Shown: one piece after another, positions 43,301 through 49,810 of the stretch
Position numbering within the stretch: the stretch's first letter is position 1
Layout: the number at the start of each line of letters is the position of its first letter
From: an uncultured Chitinophagaceae bacterium
GTDB taxonomy: Bacteria > Bacteroidota > Bacteroidia > Chitinophagales > Chitinophagaceae
Length of the DNA stretch: 64,000 nt
Direction: 5' to 3'
NCBI GenBank assembly: GCA_963782225.1
Contig: CAWAIQ010000001.1
Location: forward strand, 29,455-93,454
The notes under the pieces: generated by a model
What the model saw: the letters and a program-made list of their open reading frames with translations, nothing else
What the model was told of the DNA's origin: nothing
The model's database searches: none
Program-made: the position numbers and the translations under genes

Positions 43301-43729
43301 TTACATTTTAAGGGAAACATTCCTGTTGCAGATTGATTTGAAGAGGCCCCCAACCTCTTTCATTTCATCGAGGCGTATAGGCTTATTAATAAAATCCTCT
43401 GCTCCCAGCGAAAGGCTTTGATCGTAGTCGCTTCGTGCTTTTGAGCTGCTAAACATATACACCGGCAGCTTCGAATATTGTTTGCTGGCCTTTAATTGCT
43501 CCAGCGTGTATAAGCCATTCCAGATGGGCATATTTACATCGAGCACGATGCAGCAGGGGAGTGGAGTGCCTGCAGGCAGCTTATCGAGAAATCTCATCGT
43601 TTCGCGCCCATCCGGCACACACACTACCCGGAGGGCAGGATCGGCCTCGCTGAGGATTTCAATAACGGTCTCCCGGTCGTCGGGATCGTCGTCCGCATAC
43701 AGAAGATACTTTTCCGCAGTATTGGTCAT
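43301..43729 (-). CDS. response regulator, receiver domain only (Rcp1/CheY-like)
   Basis: 142 aa; LLYADDDPDD…, CIVLDVNMPIWNG, …VYMFSSS…, …INKP; divergent from the hydrolase-kinase pair. Confidence 0.85.
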   Translation of the reverse strand: MTNTAEKYLLYADDDPDDRETVIEILSEADPALRVVCVPDGRETMRFLDKLPAGTPLPCCIVLDVNMPIWNGLYTLEQLKASKQYSKLPVYMFSSSKARSDYDQSLSLGAEDFINKPIRLDEMKEVGGLFKSICNRNVSLKM

Positions 43730-43821
43730 TGTAAAGAAAGCTAATCAAATATAAAAATATGGTCAAAAAAAAGAGCCCGGCATCCAACTTTTAATGTATC
43801 GCCTTACCGTGCTCATTTCCG

Positions 43822-43829
43822 TACTTTTG
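43822..43829 (+). promoter_or_regulatory. Bacteroidota -7 box candidate TACTTTTG
   Basis: Exact TAnnTTTG 18 nt upstream of ATG 43847. Confidence 0.3.
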
Positions 43830-43846
43830 ACCATTAATCCTCCAAC

Positions 43847-44644
43847 ATGTCGGTGATCCAGCGAAATAATGTCAATGTAAGTGGTAAAGGTACAGTGCCA
43901 ATGCTTTTTGCCCACGGTTTTGGATGTGACCAGGAGATGTGGCGGTATGTAGCCCCGACTTTTGAGAAAAATTATAAAGTAATACGGTTCGATTATGTGG
44001 GCCACGGGAGGTCGGACCGCTCTGCGTATAATGCAAGCAGGTATCAGTCGCTTCGCGGATACGCACAGGATGTGCTGGACATTTGTCACGAACTGGCCCT
44101 GAAAGATGTAGTATTTGTTGGACATTCTGTAAGCAGCATGATTGGTATGCTCGCTGCGATCGAAGCACCCGGTGTATTTTCTAAACTCATCATGATTGGG
44201 CCCTCGCCGTGTTATATCAACGAAGCCGATTATACGGGTGGATTTGAAAAAAGTGATATAGAAGCGTTGTTGCAAACGATGGATAAGAATTATATCGGTT
44301 GGGCAAATTACCTGGCGCCGGTAGTGATGGCTAACCCGGATAAGCCGGAGCTTTCTGCAGAGCTTGCCGAAAGTTTTTGCTCCACTGATCCGAAAATTGC
44401 GCGACAATTTGCACAGGTAACATTTTTATCCGACAACCGCGACGACCTGCATAAGCTGAAAACACCATCGCTCATTCTGCAATGTTCTAACGATTTGATA
44501 GCTCCCGCAACTGTTGGTGAGTACCTTGCGAAAAATTTACGTAATAGCCAGCTATGGAATTTGGCGGCGACAGGGCATTGTCCGCAGATGAGTGCACCGC
44601 AGGAGACGATCGACGCAATACAAAAATTTTTAAGAGTAGCTTGA
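43847..44644 (+). CDS. RsbQ/KAI2/D14-type alpha/beta-hydrolase
   Basis: 265 aa; collinear with Bacillus RsbQ as I remember it: NNVNVSGKG…MLFAHGFGCDQEMW…FDYVGHG.SD…GYAQDVLDIC…VFVGHSVSSMIGMLA (Ser), …NYIGWA…FCSTDPKIARQFA…SLILQCSNDLIAPATVGEY (Asp), …ATGHCPQMS (His). Confidence 0.85.
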   Translation: MSVIQRNNVNVSGKGTVPMLFAHGFGCDQEMWRYVAPTFEKNYKVIRFDYVGHGRSDRSAYNASRYQSLRGYAQDVLDICHELALKDVVFVGHSVSSMIGMLAAIEAPGVFSKLIMIGPSPCYINEADYTGGFEKSDIEALLQTMDKNYIGWANYLAPVVMANPDKPELSAELAESFCSTDPKIARQFAQVTFLSDNRDDLHKLKTPSLILQCSNDLIAPATVGEYLAKNLRNSQLWNLAATGHCPQMSAPQETIDAIQKFLRVA

Positions 44645-45843
44645 TAACTGAAGGATATTGGCATACCGCACCAGCATTGTATCTCACCTTCACCGACGAT
44701 GGTAAAATATTGTCGTTTAATGACACGTTATGTCATTTGCTCGGGTATGATTCGAGTGATTTAGAAGCGGCCACTCTCGATAACATTCTTCCTGTATCAT
44801 CGCGGATATTTTATCAAACTCACTGGTTTCCGACACTGCGGTTAACTCAAAACGCAAATGAGCTTTTTGTTTTATTCAGGCATAAGAATAAAAGTGATCT
44901 TCCTTTTCTGTTGAATTCAAAACGGCAGGAAGTTGATGGTATGATGGTTACTGCATGTGTGGGCATACTTGTACTGAACCGGGTGAAGTATGAAGATGAG
45001 TTGCTCGCTGCAAGAAAAGCCTATGAGTCGGCCCTGAGTACAAATGCTGCACTTTTTGACGCGCGTGAACAGCTTGCGAAACATAGCGAGCAGCTCGACA
45101 AAAATTTTTCTCAGTTGAATCAGCAACATAGTGAGTTGCGACAAATAAGTAAAGTAGTGACGCACGATTTGCAGGAACCGCTTAGAAAACTACTTTACTA
45201 TGCGGATGTATTGCATGAATATGGCGACACGCTTCCTGCTGAGGTGGCGAAAAAACTAAACAGGTTGCAGTCGGTTACTTTGCAGTTGCAACGCAGAATT
45301 GGCGGCCTGCAACAATATATGTGGCTAACGGAGGACGATGCGCCGGTGAGAAATGTGTCGCTCGAAAATGTAATGGATGTTGTAAAGGATACACTTGACC
45401 TCAGGTTTGGTTCAGGTCAGTTTATGTTGGCATGTGATCCATTGCCCGAGATACTGGGAAATGAGCGGCAGCTCGAAGTATTATTCACGCATATATTAGA
45501 TAATGCCGTGCGGTTTGTTCCGGCGGATAAAAAACCTGCTGTAAAAATCAGGGCGACACAACTTCAAAACAATCACTTCAGGAATCTGAAAGAAGAATAC
45601 AGGTACACCGATCATTTGCGTTTGGAAATTGAGGACAATGGAATTGGGATTGAAGACGAATTGCGAGAGCAGGTGTTTGCGATGTTTTATTCCTCGAATA
45701 ACCCCGACGGTGCGGGGATGGGGCTGGCACTTGTTTCGAAGATTGTAGAGTTTCATCATGGAACGGTTAGTGTTCACAGCGAACCAGGGAAGGGTACAGT
45801 CGTGACGGTCACTTTTCCGATGGGCAACCTCATTATTCATTAA
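44641..45843 (+). CDS. PAS-domain sensor histidine kinase (phytochrome-type H-box)
   Basis: Start uncertain (TTG 44641 overlapping the hydrolase TGA, or ATG 44554 with 91-nt overlap). PAS-like about 125 aa, coiled coil, H-box KVVTHDLQEPLRKL, N-box HILDNAVRF, G-boxes EDNGIGIE and GAGMGLALV. Confidence 0.8.
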   Translation: MITEGYWHTAPALYLTFTDDGKILSFNDTLCHLLGYDSSDLEAATLDNILPVSSRIFYQTHWFPTLRLTQNANELFVLFRHKNKSDLPFLLNSKRQEVDGMMVTACVGILVLNRVKYEDELLAARKAYESALSTNAALFDAREQLAKHSEQLDKNFSQLNQQHSELRQISKVVTHDLQEPLRKLLYYADVLHEYGDTLPAEVAKKLNRLQSVTLQLQRRIGGLQQYMWLTEDDAPVRNVSLENVMDVVKDTLDLRFGSGQFMLACDPLPEILGNERQLEVLFTHILDNAVRFVPADKKPAVKIRATQLQNNHFRNLKEEYRYTDHLRLEIEDNGIGIEDELREQVFAMFYSSNNPDGAGMGLALVSKIVEFHHGTVSVHSEPGKGTVVTVTFPMGNLIIH

Positions 45844-45855
45844 AAAAACTACAAA

Positions 45856-46599
45856 TTGGAATTCAACCCAGGCAACCAGGTAGTAAAAAGGTGTCTTGAA
45901 GGCATGGCGCTCGAAGGGCGCGGCAACGACCCAGAAGCTGCCCGCGTTTTCATGCAGGCATGGAACGAGGCAACGAACGACTTTGAAAAGTTTCTGGCAG
46001 CGTATTATGTGGCACGACACCAGCAAACGGCTAATGATCAGGTGCAATGGCTAAAGACCGCTCTGGCATGTGCAGCCAAAGTAAACGACGAATCGGTGAG
46101 GGCAGGAATGGTGGCATTGCATGAGCGTTTAGCACAGTGCTATCAAGAATTAAATGATGCCGACAACGTAAGGGTGCATCAAAAGTTGGCGGCAGCGCTC
46201 AATACTACGCCGGCCGACAAAGGACCTTTTTATCATGGCACGCGGGCTGCTTTAAAGGTGGGGGAGTTGCTTATACCAGGCTACATGTCGAATTACAAGT
46301 CGGATTTAATGATGAATCATATTTACTTTACGGCGTTGGCGAATGGTGCCGGCCTTGCTGCAGCTTTGGCGAAGGGGGAGACTAGCGAACGGGTGTACAT
46401 TGTTGAGCCGACCGGTGTGTTTGAGGATGATCCTAATGTTACAAATAAAAAATTCCCGGGTAACCCAACAAGATCCTATCGAACGCAGGAACCATTAAAA
46501 GTGGTGGGTGAATTAACGGAATGGATGAGAATAACGCCGGAAGAACTTCGGAAATGGAAGGAGAAATTAGCGCAAAGTGATGGCGAGATTATTAATTAG
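45856..46599 (+). CDS. arr: NAD+--rifampin ADP-ribosyltransferase (Arr family) with about 105-120-aa N-terminal helical extension
   Basis: C-terminal 125 aa: GPFYHGTRAALKVGELL…MNHIYFTALANGAGLAAALA…RVYIVEPTGVFEDDPNVTNKKFPGNPTRSYRTQEPLKVVGEL, the Arr core (compare Arr-2 GPFYHGT…HIYF…YIVEPTGPFEDDPNLTNKRFPGNPTQSYRT). Start TTG 45856 or ATG 45904. Confidence 0.8.
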   Translation: MEFNPGNQVVKRCLEGMALEGRGNDPEAARVFMQAWNEATNDFEKFLAAYYVARHQQTANDQVQWLKTALACAAKVNDESVRAGMVALHERLAQCYQELNDADNVRVHQKLAAALNTTPADKGPFYHGTRAALKVGELLIPGYMSNYKSDLMMNHIYFTALANGAGLAAALAKGETSERVYIVEPTGVFEDDPNVTNKKFPGNPTRSYRTQEPLKVVGELTEWMRITPEELRKWKEKLAQSDGEIIN

Positions 46600-47180: not shown

Positions 47181-48393
47181 ATGAGGCGTAGTAGATGCTG
47201 GTGGGTGTGCATAATCTTATTCTGCATTTTTAGCAATGAAATTTATGCGCAGCGAGGCCTTCCTCCCAAAAAAAAGACACGGTCGACACTCGTAACGAAG
47301 TATCCCCAACACCTGGACTTTTTACCAGACATGGTAAAACTTCTTAAGGTGCCTGATGGGTGGGAAGTTAAAGTGGCGGCGTCTGGCCTTGGCAGGCCGC
47401 GAATGATGTATAGTCAACGCGAAGGCGAACTGTATATCACACGCCGTGATGCAGGCGATGTGTTGTTGCTTAAAGACACCGATAATGATTCAGTCTTTGA
47501 CGATGTCAAAACCATTGTATATCCATTCAAAGGCGTTCATGGCATCGCCATAAAAAATGGATGGCTCTATCTCTGCAATAACACAGAACTCCGCAGATAT
47601 CTCCTCAACTCAGATGGCACTGTAAGCAACGAAGAAGTGCTCATAACGGATTTGCCTAGTGGAGGCCAACATCCAAACAGAACAATAGCGTTTGGTCCCG
47701 ATGGTAAACTATATATCAGCGTCGGCACGCTTTGCAATGATTGCAAGGAGAGCGATAAAGAAACTGCATCAATTTTGCAGGTTGACACCACAACGTGGAA
47801 GCGTACTATTTACGCCAGCGGCTTAAGAAATACTATTGGTTTCGACTTTAATCCCGAAACCGGTAAGCTGTGGGGTATGGATAACGGCGGTGACGGTAAA
47901 GGAAATAAATGGCCACCCGAAGAGCTTAATTTAATTGAAAAGGATGGCAACTACGGCTTTCCATTCGCTTATGGAAAAAAGGAAGTTGACCAAACGCGCG
48001 AAGATCCCCCGGGTGATGTAAAAGAAGAATGGGTGAAAAATACTCAGCCTTCGGTGATGGAATTTGCCGCACATATGGCGCCTATCGGTTTTACATTTTT
48101 GAAGAATACAAGGGGAAGTTCAGATATGTCGGGTGATGCGCTGGTGTGCTGGCATGGATCATGGAACCGCAGTAAACCTGTGGGTTTTAAAGTACAGATG
48201 AATATATTTTGAAAATGGCCAGCCCACGAGAGCAGAAGATTTTCTAAATGGATTTCTGAAGCCTGGATTTTTGATGTTTAAAAGGAAGGCGAGGTTTGGT
48301 CGTCCTGCGGGTGTAACCTCGTCGCCTTCCGGCATTATATATGTTTCGGATGACGCAAATGGAGTTATCTATTCTATCCAAAGAAAAAAATAA
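47181..48393 (+). pseudogene. PQQ-dependent sugar (sorbosone/glucose) dehydrogenase-family beta-propeller, one +1 frame step near the 3' end
   Basis: …GGQHPNRTIAFGPDGKLYISVGTLCNDC…GLRNTIGFDFNPETGKLWGMDNG…; track ORF stops at 48212 but the expected C-terminus (IYFENGQPTRAEDFLNGFL…GRPAGVTSSPSGIIYVSDDANGVIYSIQRKK*) continues in the +1 frame to 48393; junction about 48197-48205. Confidence 0.75.
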
Positions 48394-48394
48394 C

Positions 48395-49431
48395 ATGAAG
48401 AAGATAATTGTGATTGTGATAGCGGTTATTGCTTATGGATGCATCGCCATTAAGCCGACGGAAAGAATAAACTTCGATGCGCCTGGAACTTATCCTGAAG
48501 GTATCGCTTACGACAGCGCAGCTAAAACATATTATGTTTCAAGCGCACGACTCGCGACAATCGGGAAGGTAACGCCGGAAGGCGCTTACTCGGTGTTTCA
48601 TGCAGATAGCACACTTAAGTCGACTTACGGAATGAAAATTCATCCCGATGGAAAGCGTTTGTTTGTTTGTGTGAGCGACGCCAATTACAGCAAATTTACT
48701 TCACCGGATACGCGGAAGAAATTAATACGATTACTCAGTTTCGATGTGGCATCAGGAAAGAAGGTAGGGGATGTTGATTTATCGTCGTTGGTGCCTGGTG
48801 AGCATTTTGGAAATGACCTGGCGTTTGATGATGCTGGCAATGCATATGTTACGGATAGTTACGCGCATGTATTTATAAAGTAGATGCAGGCGGTAAAGCG
48901 AGCGTATTTGTCAAGGATAAAATGTTTGAAACGAAAGGCATTGGGTTAAATGGTATCGTGTATCATCCTTCCGGATTTTTGCTCGTTGATAACACCAATA
49001 CTGGTGCATTGTATAAAGTTGACATTAAAGATCCGACAAAAGTGAGTAAAGTAAAGTTGAACCAGTTTTTTCTGGGAGAGATGGTTGATTTGGAAAGATC
49101 CTGAAAGTTAGTGATGGTGGTAAATGGGAACAATGATAAGATTTATCAGCTTACTTCCGAGGATAACTGGAATAGTGCTGAAATGAAAGCTACTACTATA
49201 ATTGCGGATCGGTTTACTTATCCTGCCACTGCAGCGCGCAATGGTAATGATATCTGGATAATGAATGCAAAGTTTAATGAATTGGTAGATAGCAACAATG
49301 TGCCTTCAAAATCCTTTGCTATTCAACGGGCGGTTTTTAAGCCTATCCCTAAGAAGCTTAAGAAAATAAGTTGTGAAATTAAGCACGCCTCGATTGATAT
49401 TTGTCAAAGCGTGCTATCTTTTATTCGTTGA
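48395..49431 (+). pseudogene. SMP-30/gluconolactonase/LRE-like beta-propeller lipoprotein, disrupted at two or more sites
   Basis: Three track ORFs (48341..48883, 48922..49104, 49111..49431) read as one protein: lipobox IAYGC, …YPEGIAYDS…, …AYVTDSYAHV|IYKVDAGGKASVF… (junction about 48870), in-frame TGA at 49102-49104; 3' end uncertain. Confidence 0.6.
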
Positions 49432-49810
49432 TTACTTCGAGTATTGTGAAAGTCTTTTTACCTGCGGGTACTTCCCAATTAATTTGTTGACCTTTTCGAA
49501 ATCCGATCAATGCCGTTCCTATAGGTGCGAATATTGATATTTTTTGCTCCTTTATATTTGCTTTGTCTGGTGTTACGAGTATTACATTCATTACTCTTGT
49601 ATCGTCTTCCGCTTTGATTGCAACTTTTGAGTTTAATCTTACAATGTCCAGTGGTATACTGTCGCTGCTTACCAGCTTCGCTTTCCTTAATTCTCCTCTC
49701 AGATCTTCTAAATTTTTTCTGTCGAATGCGGTTTTACCGAACAGGCCGTTGAGATATGAGGTTAAAAGCCTGTGGTCTTCTTTTGTAAGAATAAGATTGT
49801 TCTTTTTCAT
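49421..49810 (-). CDS. GreA/GreB-family protein (Rnk-like, nucleoside diphosphate kinase regulator type)
   Basis: 129 aa; short N-terminal coiled coil, C-terminal …NSKVAIKAEDDTRVMNVILVTPDKANIKEQKISIFAPIGTALIGFRKGQQINWEVPAG. Confidence 0.8.
   Translation of the reverse strand: MKKNNLILTKEDHRLLTSYLNGLFGKTAFDRKNLEDLRGELRKAKLVSSDSIPLDIVRLNSKVAIKAEDDTRVMNVILVTPDKANIKEQKISIFAPIGTALIGFRKGQQINWEVPAGKKTFTILEVINE

Follow-up and report, generated by a model that had tools for sequence, protein, structure and literature searches.

An RsbQ-type hydrolase, an RsbP-type PAS histidine kinase and a receiver-only regulator: a probable two-component form of the RsbQ-PAS module in an uncultured Chitinophagaceae bacterium

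We analyzed a 64-kb stretch of DNA from an uncultured Chitinophagaceae bacterium (contig CAWAIQ010000001.1), the whole of which is referred to below as the window. The locus of interest contains a gene for an RsbQ-type α/β-hydrolase, followed on the same strand by a gene for a soluble histidine kinase with an N-terminal PAS domain, and flanked in divergent orientation by a gene for a stand-alone receiver (Table 1). The three open reading frames (ORFs) lie where an initial annotation, made by reading the DNA without database searches, had placed them, and the frame of the kinase is open from ATG 44554 to 45843. That annotation had implied that the wiring of such a hydrolase to a PAS kinase was new, an implication that has to be withdrawn since a module with kinase outputs was described in 2011 (PMC3183031) and cited in 2025 (PMC12143880). 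The locus is an ordinary example of the already known, very widespread RsbQ-PAS module and not a new kind of system.

The "RsbQ-PAS module" was defined by Nadezhdin, Brody and Price (PLoS One 2011) on the basis of 45 adjacent RsbQ/RsbP-PAS pairs, in which the PAS domain and a coiled-coil are followed by one of several outputs, that is, a PPM phosphatase in Gram-positives, a histidine kinase in Gram-negative bacteria, or a diguanylate cyclase. The module was proposed to pass one common signal to these diverse outputs, and the PAS domain of RsbP was found to be required and also to suffice for the binding of RsbQ, which is disrupted by the F55A substitution (PMC3183031). A 2025 eLife paper restates the module and the diversity of its outputs, presents an AlphaFold2 2:2 model in which RsbQ contacts an RsbP dimer at the PAS/linker interface, and argues that phosphatases, kinases and cyclases share a coiled-coil transmission mechanism (PMC12143880).

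As can be read from the sequence, the hydrolase and kinase genes of the window overlap by 4 nt, the TGA stop codon of the hydrolase (44642-44644) running into an in-frame TTG at 44641, just as had been annotated. While two further in-frame start codons for the kinase are found upstream (ATG 44554 and TTG 44578), we favor TTG 44641 because it is the start in the public gene call (P0002), which gives a 400-aa product, because kinase homologues have 6-10 residues ahead of their AP(C)G motif, as does the protein starting at this TTG, and because a relative with a 92% identical hydrolase (L082) displays an identical 4-nt overlap. Since homologue starts match TTG 44641, the extra 29 aa that would be added by starting at ATG 44554 are without homologue support. 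The overlap and a kinase start that is not far downstream, on which a claim of translational coupling had been built, are therefore both real; from the overlap we reasonably infer that the two genes are translationally coupled. As for the hydrolase, its public gene call, made on an independent assembly of this region that is 99.3% identical to the window (L081:764-1507, corresponding to window 43901..44644), begins at an internal Met and yields 247 aa. ATG 43847 is the better start because the 265-aa form aligns with RsbQ from its residue 2 onwards. The exact 265-aa sequence was not in the protein collection that we searched.

Table 1. Coordinates of the features of the locus in the window, of the gene that follows it, and of PAS-linker-STAS genes in related loci.
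Feature	Position	Strand	Basis or remark
Receiver-only response regulator	43301..43729	-	142 aa, Response_reg match
Phospho-acceptor D64 of the receiver	43538-43540		codon
Divergent intergenic spacer, 117 bp	43730..43846	.	two TAnnTTTG boxes, candidate divergent promoters
RsbQ-type α/β-hydrolase	43847..44644	+	265 aa, 1WOM match
Hydrolase S94, nucleophile	44126-44128	+	codon, RsbQ alignment
Hydrolase D216	44492-44494	+	codon, RsbQ alignment
Hydrolase H244	44576-44578	+	codon, RsbQ alignment
TTGA overlap, kinase start TTG and hydrolase stop TGA	44641..44644	+	read from sequence
Soluble PAS histidine kinase	44641..45843	+	400 aa, HATPase_c match, AlphaFold2 model
RsbP-type PAS domain, kinase residues 6-110	44656..44970	+	BLASTP vs RsbP
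Continuous 80-residue helix, kinase residues 114-193, PAS-to-kinase linker into DHp helix 1	44980..45219	+	
Phospho-acceptor H175 of the kinase	45163-45165		codon
Catalytic ATP-binding domain, kinase residues 237-393	45349..45819	+	N, G1, F, G2 boxes
Arr-like gene	45856..46599	+	247 aa, TTG start
PAS-linker-STAS loci	L015:1933-2706; L030:2834-3619; L031:4824-5630; L035:4834-5610; L042:4822-5613		

The hydrolase clearly is an RsbQ homologue. Its best match among all sequences of the Protein Data Bank (PDB) is RsbQ from Bacillus subtilis (1WOM), with an E-value of 3.4e-101 and a score of 341 bits. Residues 2-263 align with residues 6-268 of the 1WOM chain with 56.5% identity over 262 residues and a single one-residue gap, so the two proteins are collinear over their full length, as had been proposed in the initial annotation. 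An Oleispira homologue (3QVM) ranks next, followed at ~1e-55 by dozens of entries for KAI2, D14, DAD2 and HTL, while unrelated α/β-hydrolases reach only ~1e-15. RsbQ is considered the bacterial protein from which the plant receptors for strigolactones and karrikins derive. The catalytic Ser-Asp-His triad is intact, with S94, D216 and H244 aligning with S96, D219 and H247 of RsbQ, and the motifs quoted for these residues in the initial annotation are indeed present. Four of 21 pocket positions were mapped, and among them F25, Y123 and L141 correspond to F27, Y125 and L144 of RsbQ, three residues that are common to the pockets of RsbQ and eu-KAI2 (bioRxiv 2023.12.05.570042, Waters laboratory).

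The family to which the hydrolase belongs is very large and, when clustered at 90% identity, comprises at least 7,998 clusters with E-values of 1e-50 or lower. The nearest named relatives are from Chryseolinea, Flavisolibacter, Chitinophagaceae and Chryseosolibacter, in support of the window being of Bacteroidota origin. Many relatives are called "sigma-B regulation protein RsbQ" by JGI, while NCBI names them merely "alpha/beta hydrolase". The latter name would suit an ordinary catabolic esterase or lactonase whose place beside a PAS kinase has no sensory meaning, and so would the matches to enol-lactonase and BioH-type models seen in an NCBIfam scan of the protein. However, there is no RsbQ-specific model in NCBIfam and all matches of the scan are far under their cut-offs (e.g. 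94 vs. 390 bits), in contrast to the score obtained with RsbQ.

While the N terminus of the kinase had been described simply as PAS-like, with an unrelated PAS as the outcome that would have spoken against the proposal, sequence comparison and signature residues reveal that it is specifically an RsbP-type PAS domain. In BLASTP, with the exact 403-aa database entry named RsbP by NCBI and UniRef (P0152) as the reference, the kinase matches B. subtilis RsbP with an E-value of 3e-21 and 31% identity over 182 residues. Kinase residues 10-129 align with RsbP residues 8-127 without a gap, and the similarity runs on into the linker. In Pfam, by comparison, the PAS and HisKA signals are sub-threshold only. 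We mapped the class-specific residues from RsbP at an offset of +2, and found L50 (L48 in RsbP), R55 (Q53), F57 (F55), Y58 (C56), H61 (Y59), P64 (P62), E74 (E72) and P88 (P86), in each case the residue that most RsbQ-linked homologues have; R55 and Y58 fall at positions that are basic or aromatic in the class. Among the residues kept are the five (L50, F57, H61, E74 and P88) equivalent to L48, F55, Y59, E72 and P86 in RsbP, where alanine substitutions abolished or reduced function (PMC3183031). The class is reported to be without the DIT motif (PMC3183031), and neither DIT nor DVT nor DLT occurs anywhere in the 400-aa kinase sequence.

Searches with the PAS region alone gave very different yields depending on the method. 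Nothing significant was found among PDB sequences, where no structure of the RsbP PAS domain is deposited, and a word-indexed homologue search retrieved one relative only. An exhaustive HMMER search, in contrast, retrieved 415 representatives with E-values of 1e-10 or lower. In nearly all of those listed, the PAS domain lies at the N terminus, one 1410-aa multi-PAS protein matching from residue 77. Architectures seen among ten of the longer hits include GAF-kinase, hybrid kinase and GAF-GGDEF.

The remainder of the kinase was modeled together with the PAS domain by AlphaFold2, using 78 sequences, which resulted in a mean pLDDT of 92.6. The model exhibits a PAS fold (residues 6-110), an uninterrupted helix (residues 114-193, with a pLDDT of 83-96 as means of 10-residue blocks), a second helix of the dimerization and histidine phosphotransfer (DHp) domain (residues 200-231), and a catalytic domain (residues 237-393). 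In this monomer model, the linker helix agrees with the length of at least 21 residues between PAS and output that is a feature of the RsbQ-PAS module. The phospho-acceptor H175 is found within the H-box VTHDLQEPLRKL (THDLQEPLRKL) and is, like R114 and E118, nearly invariant among homologues. The HATPase domain is complete, as annotated, with a Pfam HATPase_c E-value of 5.7e-24 and recognizable N (LDNAVRF), G1 (EDNGIGI), F (FAMFY) and G2 (GAGMGLA) boxes. Among PDB sequences, the kinase core best matches the kinase domain of the bacteriophytochrome RpBphP2 (8F71), with an E-value of 5e-22, and the label "phytochrome-type H-box" that had been given to it is therefore fair. When the full-length model is compared with known structures by Foldseek, the best analogues are YF1 and SB2F1 (4GCZ and 8A7H), two proteins with a PAS(LOV)-coiled-coil-kinase architecture, at 13-18% identity; 8F71 is found as well.

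The third protein, which is 142 aa long, is a receiver (Pfam Response_reg, E-value of 4e-17) with no output domain. Its active site is complete, with an acidic pair (D13/D14), the phospho-acceptor D64, S94-S96 and K116. Its best PDB matches are 5IC5 and 5BRJ, which we take to be bacteriophytochrome regulators too, and it also matches 1K68, 1K66 and 1I3C. The matches listed include three response regulators of phytochromes, RcpA, RcpB and Rcp1, and a bacteriophytochrome-response regulator fusion (8avv), so the protein is of the type that partners phytochrome-like kinases, in agreement with the initial annotation. With a kinase core and a receiver that resemble the partners of photoreceptors, and LOV-kinase chimeras as the top full-length structural analogues, it might be argued that a flavin or haem enables the PAS domain by itself to sense light, oxygen or redox state, like the PAS domains of LOV or FixL kinases, and that the hydrolase is an accessory. 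We find this very improbable, since the likeness detected by Foldseek is architectural at the level of identity given above, the kinase sequence is without the NCRFL motif of LOV domains, and where Dos and FixL have their haem-ligating His (C56 in RsbP), this protein, like most homologues, has a Tyr (Tyr58).

Conservation of the gene pair was assessed in one genome per GTDB species, which yielded 393 hydrolase relatives, the best 80 of which (61-69% identity) were examined as loci. These come from at least seven phyla, being found in Bacteroidota, Rhodothermales, Myxococcota (Archangium), Gemmatimonadota, Acidobacteriota, Chloroflexota, Armatimonadota and cyanobacteria, and cultured carriers include Dyadobacter luticola, Dyadobacter sp. 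CY356, Cnuella takakiae, Bizionia arctica and Archangium. A PAS domain of the window type (28-48% identity) is encoded immediately downstream of the hydrolase, on the same strand, in 80/80 loci, which bears out the expectation that the adjacency would be conserved in related genomes. The start chosen for the partner mostly lies between -20 and +50 nt from the stop of the hydrolase, with outliers at -70, -62, +52, +92 and +290 nt, the first two of which may result from the choice of start codon. That one specific PAS class is found at this place across phyla is not what would be expected if the hydrolase were a catabolic enzyme, and there are no conserved catabolic genes near the pair in the loci examined. 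We consider the catabolic reading almost certainly wrong, and it is, like the reading as a light or haem sensor, poorly supported.

The partners of the hydrolase do not all have the same output. Among the 81 proteins scanned for output domains, that is, the window kinase and the 80 partners, HATPase_c is found in 67, STAS in five, GAF-GGDEF in one and SpoIIE/PPM in one, and six have an added C-terminal receiver and are thus hybrid kinases. Outputs vary while the hydrolase-PAS pair is constant, which is the pattern expected of a portable input module. The receiver-only gene also recurs, since a gene of this kind (~128-150 aa) adjoins the hydrolase-kinase pair in 19 of 28 Bacteroidota/Rhodothermales loci, where it is placed divergently upstream, as in the window, immediately downstream, or convergently. 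Two metagenomic relatives, L082 and L083, carry it and between them show both layouts.

Several observations made on these loci stand apart from the window itself. In five loci of Pyrinomonadaceae (Acidobacteriota), the RsbQ homologue is followed by a short PAS-linker-STAS protein of 258-269 aa, with STAS E-values of 3e-13 to 3e-10 (Table 1). The 2011 survey names three output classes (PPM, kinase and GGDEF), STAS being absent from them (PMC3183031). We suggest that PAS-STAS is a further output class, which would tie the module directly to partner-switching-type signalling. The PPM/SpoIIE and GAF-GGDEF outputs are found in an Armatimonadaceae metagenome-assembled genome (L040:1341-3092) and a Microcoleus cyanobacterium (L068:4819-6423), respectively; Armatimonadota lie outside the Gram-positive phyla. 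Over the phyla surveyed, the hydrolases (61-69%) are much closer to that of the window than their PAS partners (28-48%) are to the window PAS, an asymmetry which suggests either that the ligand site or an interface of the hydrolase is under strong constraint, or that the genes have spread horizontally.

We consider it quite probable that the locus couples a bipartite RsbQ-PAS sensor to two-component signalling and that it operates in the following way. The capped pocket of the hydrolase would bind a small hydrophobic ester or lactone, possibly a compound of butenolide type, which would probably also be hydrolyzed. Depending on the ligand, the hydrolase would dock on the N-terminal RsbP-type PAS domains of a dimeric kinase, and the resulting change would travel down the long helical linker to the DHp helix bearing H175, where autophosphorylation, or the balance between kinase and phosphatase activities, would be altered. 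D64 of the neighboring receiver-only protein would then accept the phosphoryl group, and this regulator, once phosphorylated, would act via protein contacts or a further relay. The direct contact between hydrolase and PAS, the dependence on hydrolysis and the transmission via the linker are all predicted by analogy with work on RsbQ and RsbP in B. subtilis.

The main competing explanation is that the hydrolase is an enzyme that makes or releases a small product or cofactor, for which the PAS pocket is the true receptor, and that it is not a docking receptor at all. The intact triad is compatible with such a role, and a hydrolase that is better conserved across phyla than its PAS partner is what one expects of an enzyme with a fixed substrate. 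However, one residue of the PAS domain is nearly invariant, in 79/80 RsbQ-linked homologues and 74/77 of a second homologue set, the strictly adjacent, tightly linked genes are in keeping with a stoichiometric complex, and D14 and KAI2 provide precedents for proteins that work as receptor and enzyme at once. This alternative appears quite unlikely.

A number of points weigh against a bipartite sensor acting through two-component signalling. First, the hydrolase has L194 where RsbQ has F197, a residue that narrows the RsbQ pocket (bioRxiv 2023.12.05.570042, Waters laboratory), and the ligand specificity may therefore differ. Second, the window PAS has Ala-Leu (A12-L13, 44674..44679) at the positions occupied by Cys in 75/80 and Gly in 72/80 RsbQ-linked homologues. 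In the second homologue set, Ala is found in 5/77 and Leu in 10/77 at these positions, which makes the window protein a minority variant. The Cys of this hPhG motif (C10 in RsbP) is present in 80% of the class and the C10A substitution in RsbP had no significant effect (PMC3183031); the Cys in AP-C-G is a frequency feature and not a requirement of the class. Third, the HisKA domain of the window kinase scores 18 bits in Pfam, below the threshold of 26.9. HisKA is detected at an E-value of 0.001 or lower in 59 of the 81 scanned proteins, and the H-box of the window kinase is clear. Fourth, the receiver gene is not always in the same place and is absent near the pair in 9/28 of the Bacteroidota/Rhodothermales loci, and its partnership with the kinase is therefore circumstantial. 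Fifth, while synthetic butenolides are hydrolyzed by RsbQ from B. subtilis and Stenotrophomonas, the catalytic His being covalently modified, their effect on RsbQ signalling in B. subtilis was inhibitory and not activating (bioRxiv 2023.12.05.570042, 2025.03.14.642314). They may therefore not resemble the native ligand, which is still reported as unknown (PMC3183031; bioRxiv 2023.12.05.570042). Finally, our literature searches for an RsbQ-linked kinase turned up no experimentally characterized member with a kinase output, as had been surmised in the initial annotation; one apparent hit from Bacteroidota proved to be an entry in a reference list.

A more specific proposal is that this kinase-output module of soil Bacteroidota acts as the receptor of a diffusible signal, a butenolide or lactone from plants, fungi or bacteria, which is read out via His-Asp phosphotransfer to a single-domain regulator. 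We put this forward tentatively, as an idea with a small but real chance of being correct. The Ala-Leu variant of AP-C-G, together with the F197L pocket change, might point to a specificity that has diverged. The hydrolase, PAS kinase and receiver make up a small soluble three-protein set with which the native ligand of RsbQ could be identified, autophosphorylation, which is readily assayed in vitro, and phosphotransfer offering a direct biochemical readout for ligand screening.

Turning to the spacer between the divergent genes, the TAnnTTTG box that had been highlighted ahead of the hydrolase exists (43822-43829, + strand), but it carries little weight since this motif occurs 46 times in the window when 55.9 are expected. 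With a frequency below chance expectation, the 43822 box alone is no evidence of a promoter. A second box is present on the other strand (43746-43753, -), and each of the two ends 17 nt ahead of its own start codon. From this symmetric arrangement within 117 bp we infer that the boxes could be back-to-back divergent promoters of the Bacteroidota type. Scans around the locus for sigma-70 promoters and intrinsic terminators gave results at chance level.

Downstream, the TTG start of an Arr-like gene is found 12 nt past the kinase stop, and this gene may be co-transcribed with the kinase. The Arr domain of the protein (residues 123-240) passes the NCBIfam cut-off for NAD(+)-rifampin ADP-ribosyltransferase (154.7 vs. 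130 bits) and is preceded by a ~120-aa extension to which no family was assigned. The Arr-like, ABM and SRPBCC neighbors were considered as parts of the system and rejected, because they are absent from all 80 loci and shared only with L082. Further along, comparison with the independent assembly L081 reveals a 1-nt insertion at 48199 of the window and several indels in 48870-49399, by which a 403-aa GSDH-like gene and a 325-aa gene are split into ORFs 47181..48212, 48341..48883, 48922..49104 and 49111..49431. Assembly errors or, alternatively, strain-level pseudogenes would account for these broken ORFs; substitutions between the two assemblies cluster at 48835-49727. Neither a tRNA gene nor, at the gathering threshold, an Rfam family was found in the whole window.

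When compared to known systems, the locus shares with the RsbQ-PAS module of 2011 an RsbQ homologue directly upstream, an RsbP-type PAS domain as the most N-terminal part of the partner, a helical linker and a kinase output, as well as the conserved F-alpha signature and the lack of a DIT motif. It differs in having Ala-Leu where the module typically has Cys-Gly in AP-C-G, and the recurrent receiver-only partner gene seen here is not described in that paper (PMC3183031). With the RsbQ/RsbP energy-stress pathway of B. subtilis, it has in common the same triad, a collinear PAS domain that is 31% identical, and a helical linker after the PAS. However, the output of RsbP is a PPM phosphatase acting on RsbV and sigma-B, while that of the window protein is a DHp/catalytic kinase core with a receiver, and, unlike in B. 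subtilis, there are no partner-switching genes in the neighborhood. The fold and triad of the hydrolase are also those of plant KAI2 and D14, to which it is similar over its full length (E ~1e-55) and, at three of the four pocket positions mapped, it has the F/Y/L residues common to RsbQ and eu-KAI2, but the plant receptors work with the F-box protein MAX2 and the degradation of SMXL proteins, while the partner here is a PAS kinase. Finally, the locus is reminiscent of the pairs formed by bacteriophytochrome kinases and single-domain regulators, with which it shares the HDLQEPLR core of the H-box (8F71) and a receiver of the RcpA/RcpB/Rcp1 type. In contrast to bacteriophytochromes, the window kinase has neither a PAS-GAF-PHY module nor a bilin site, and its input is the RsbQ-PAS pair.

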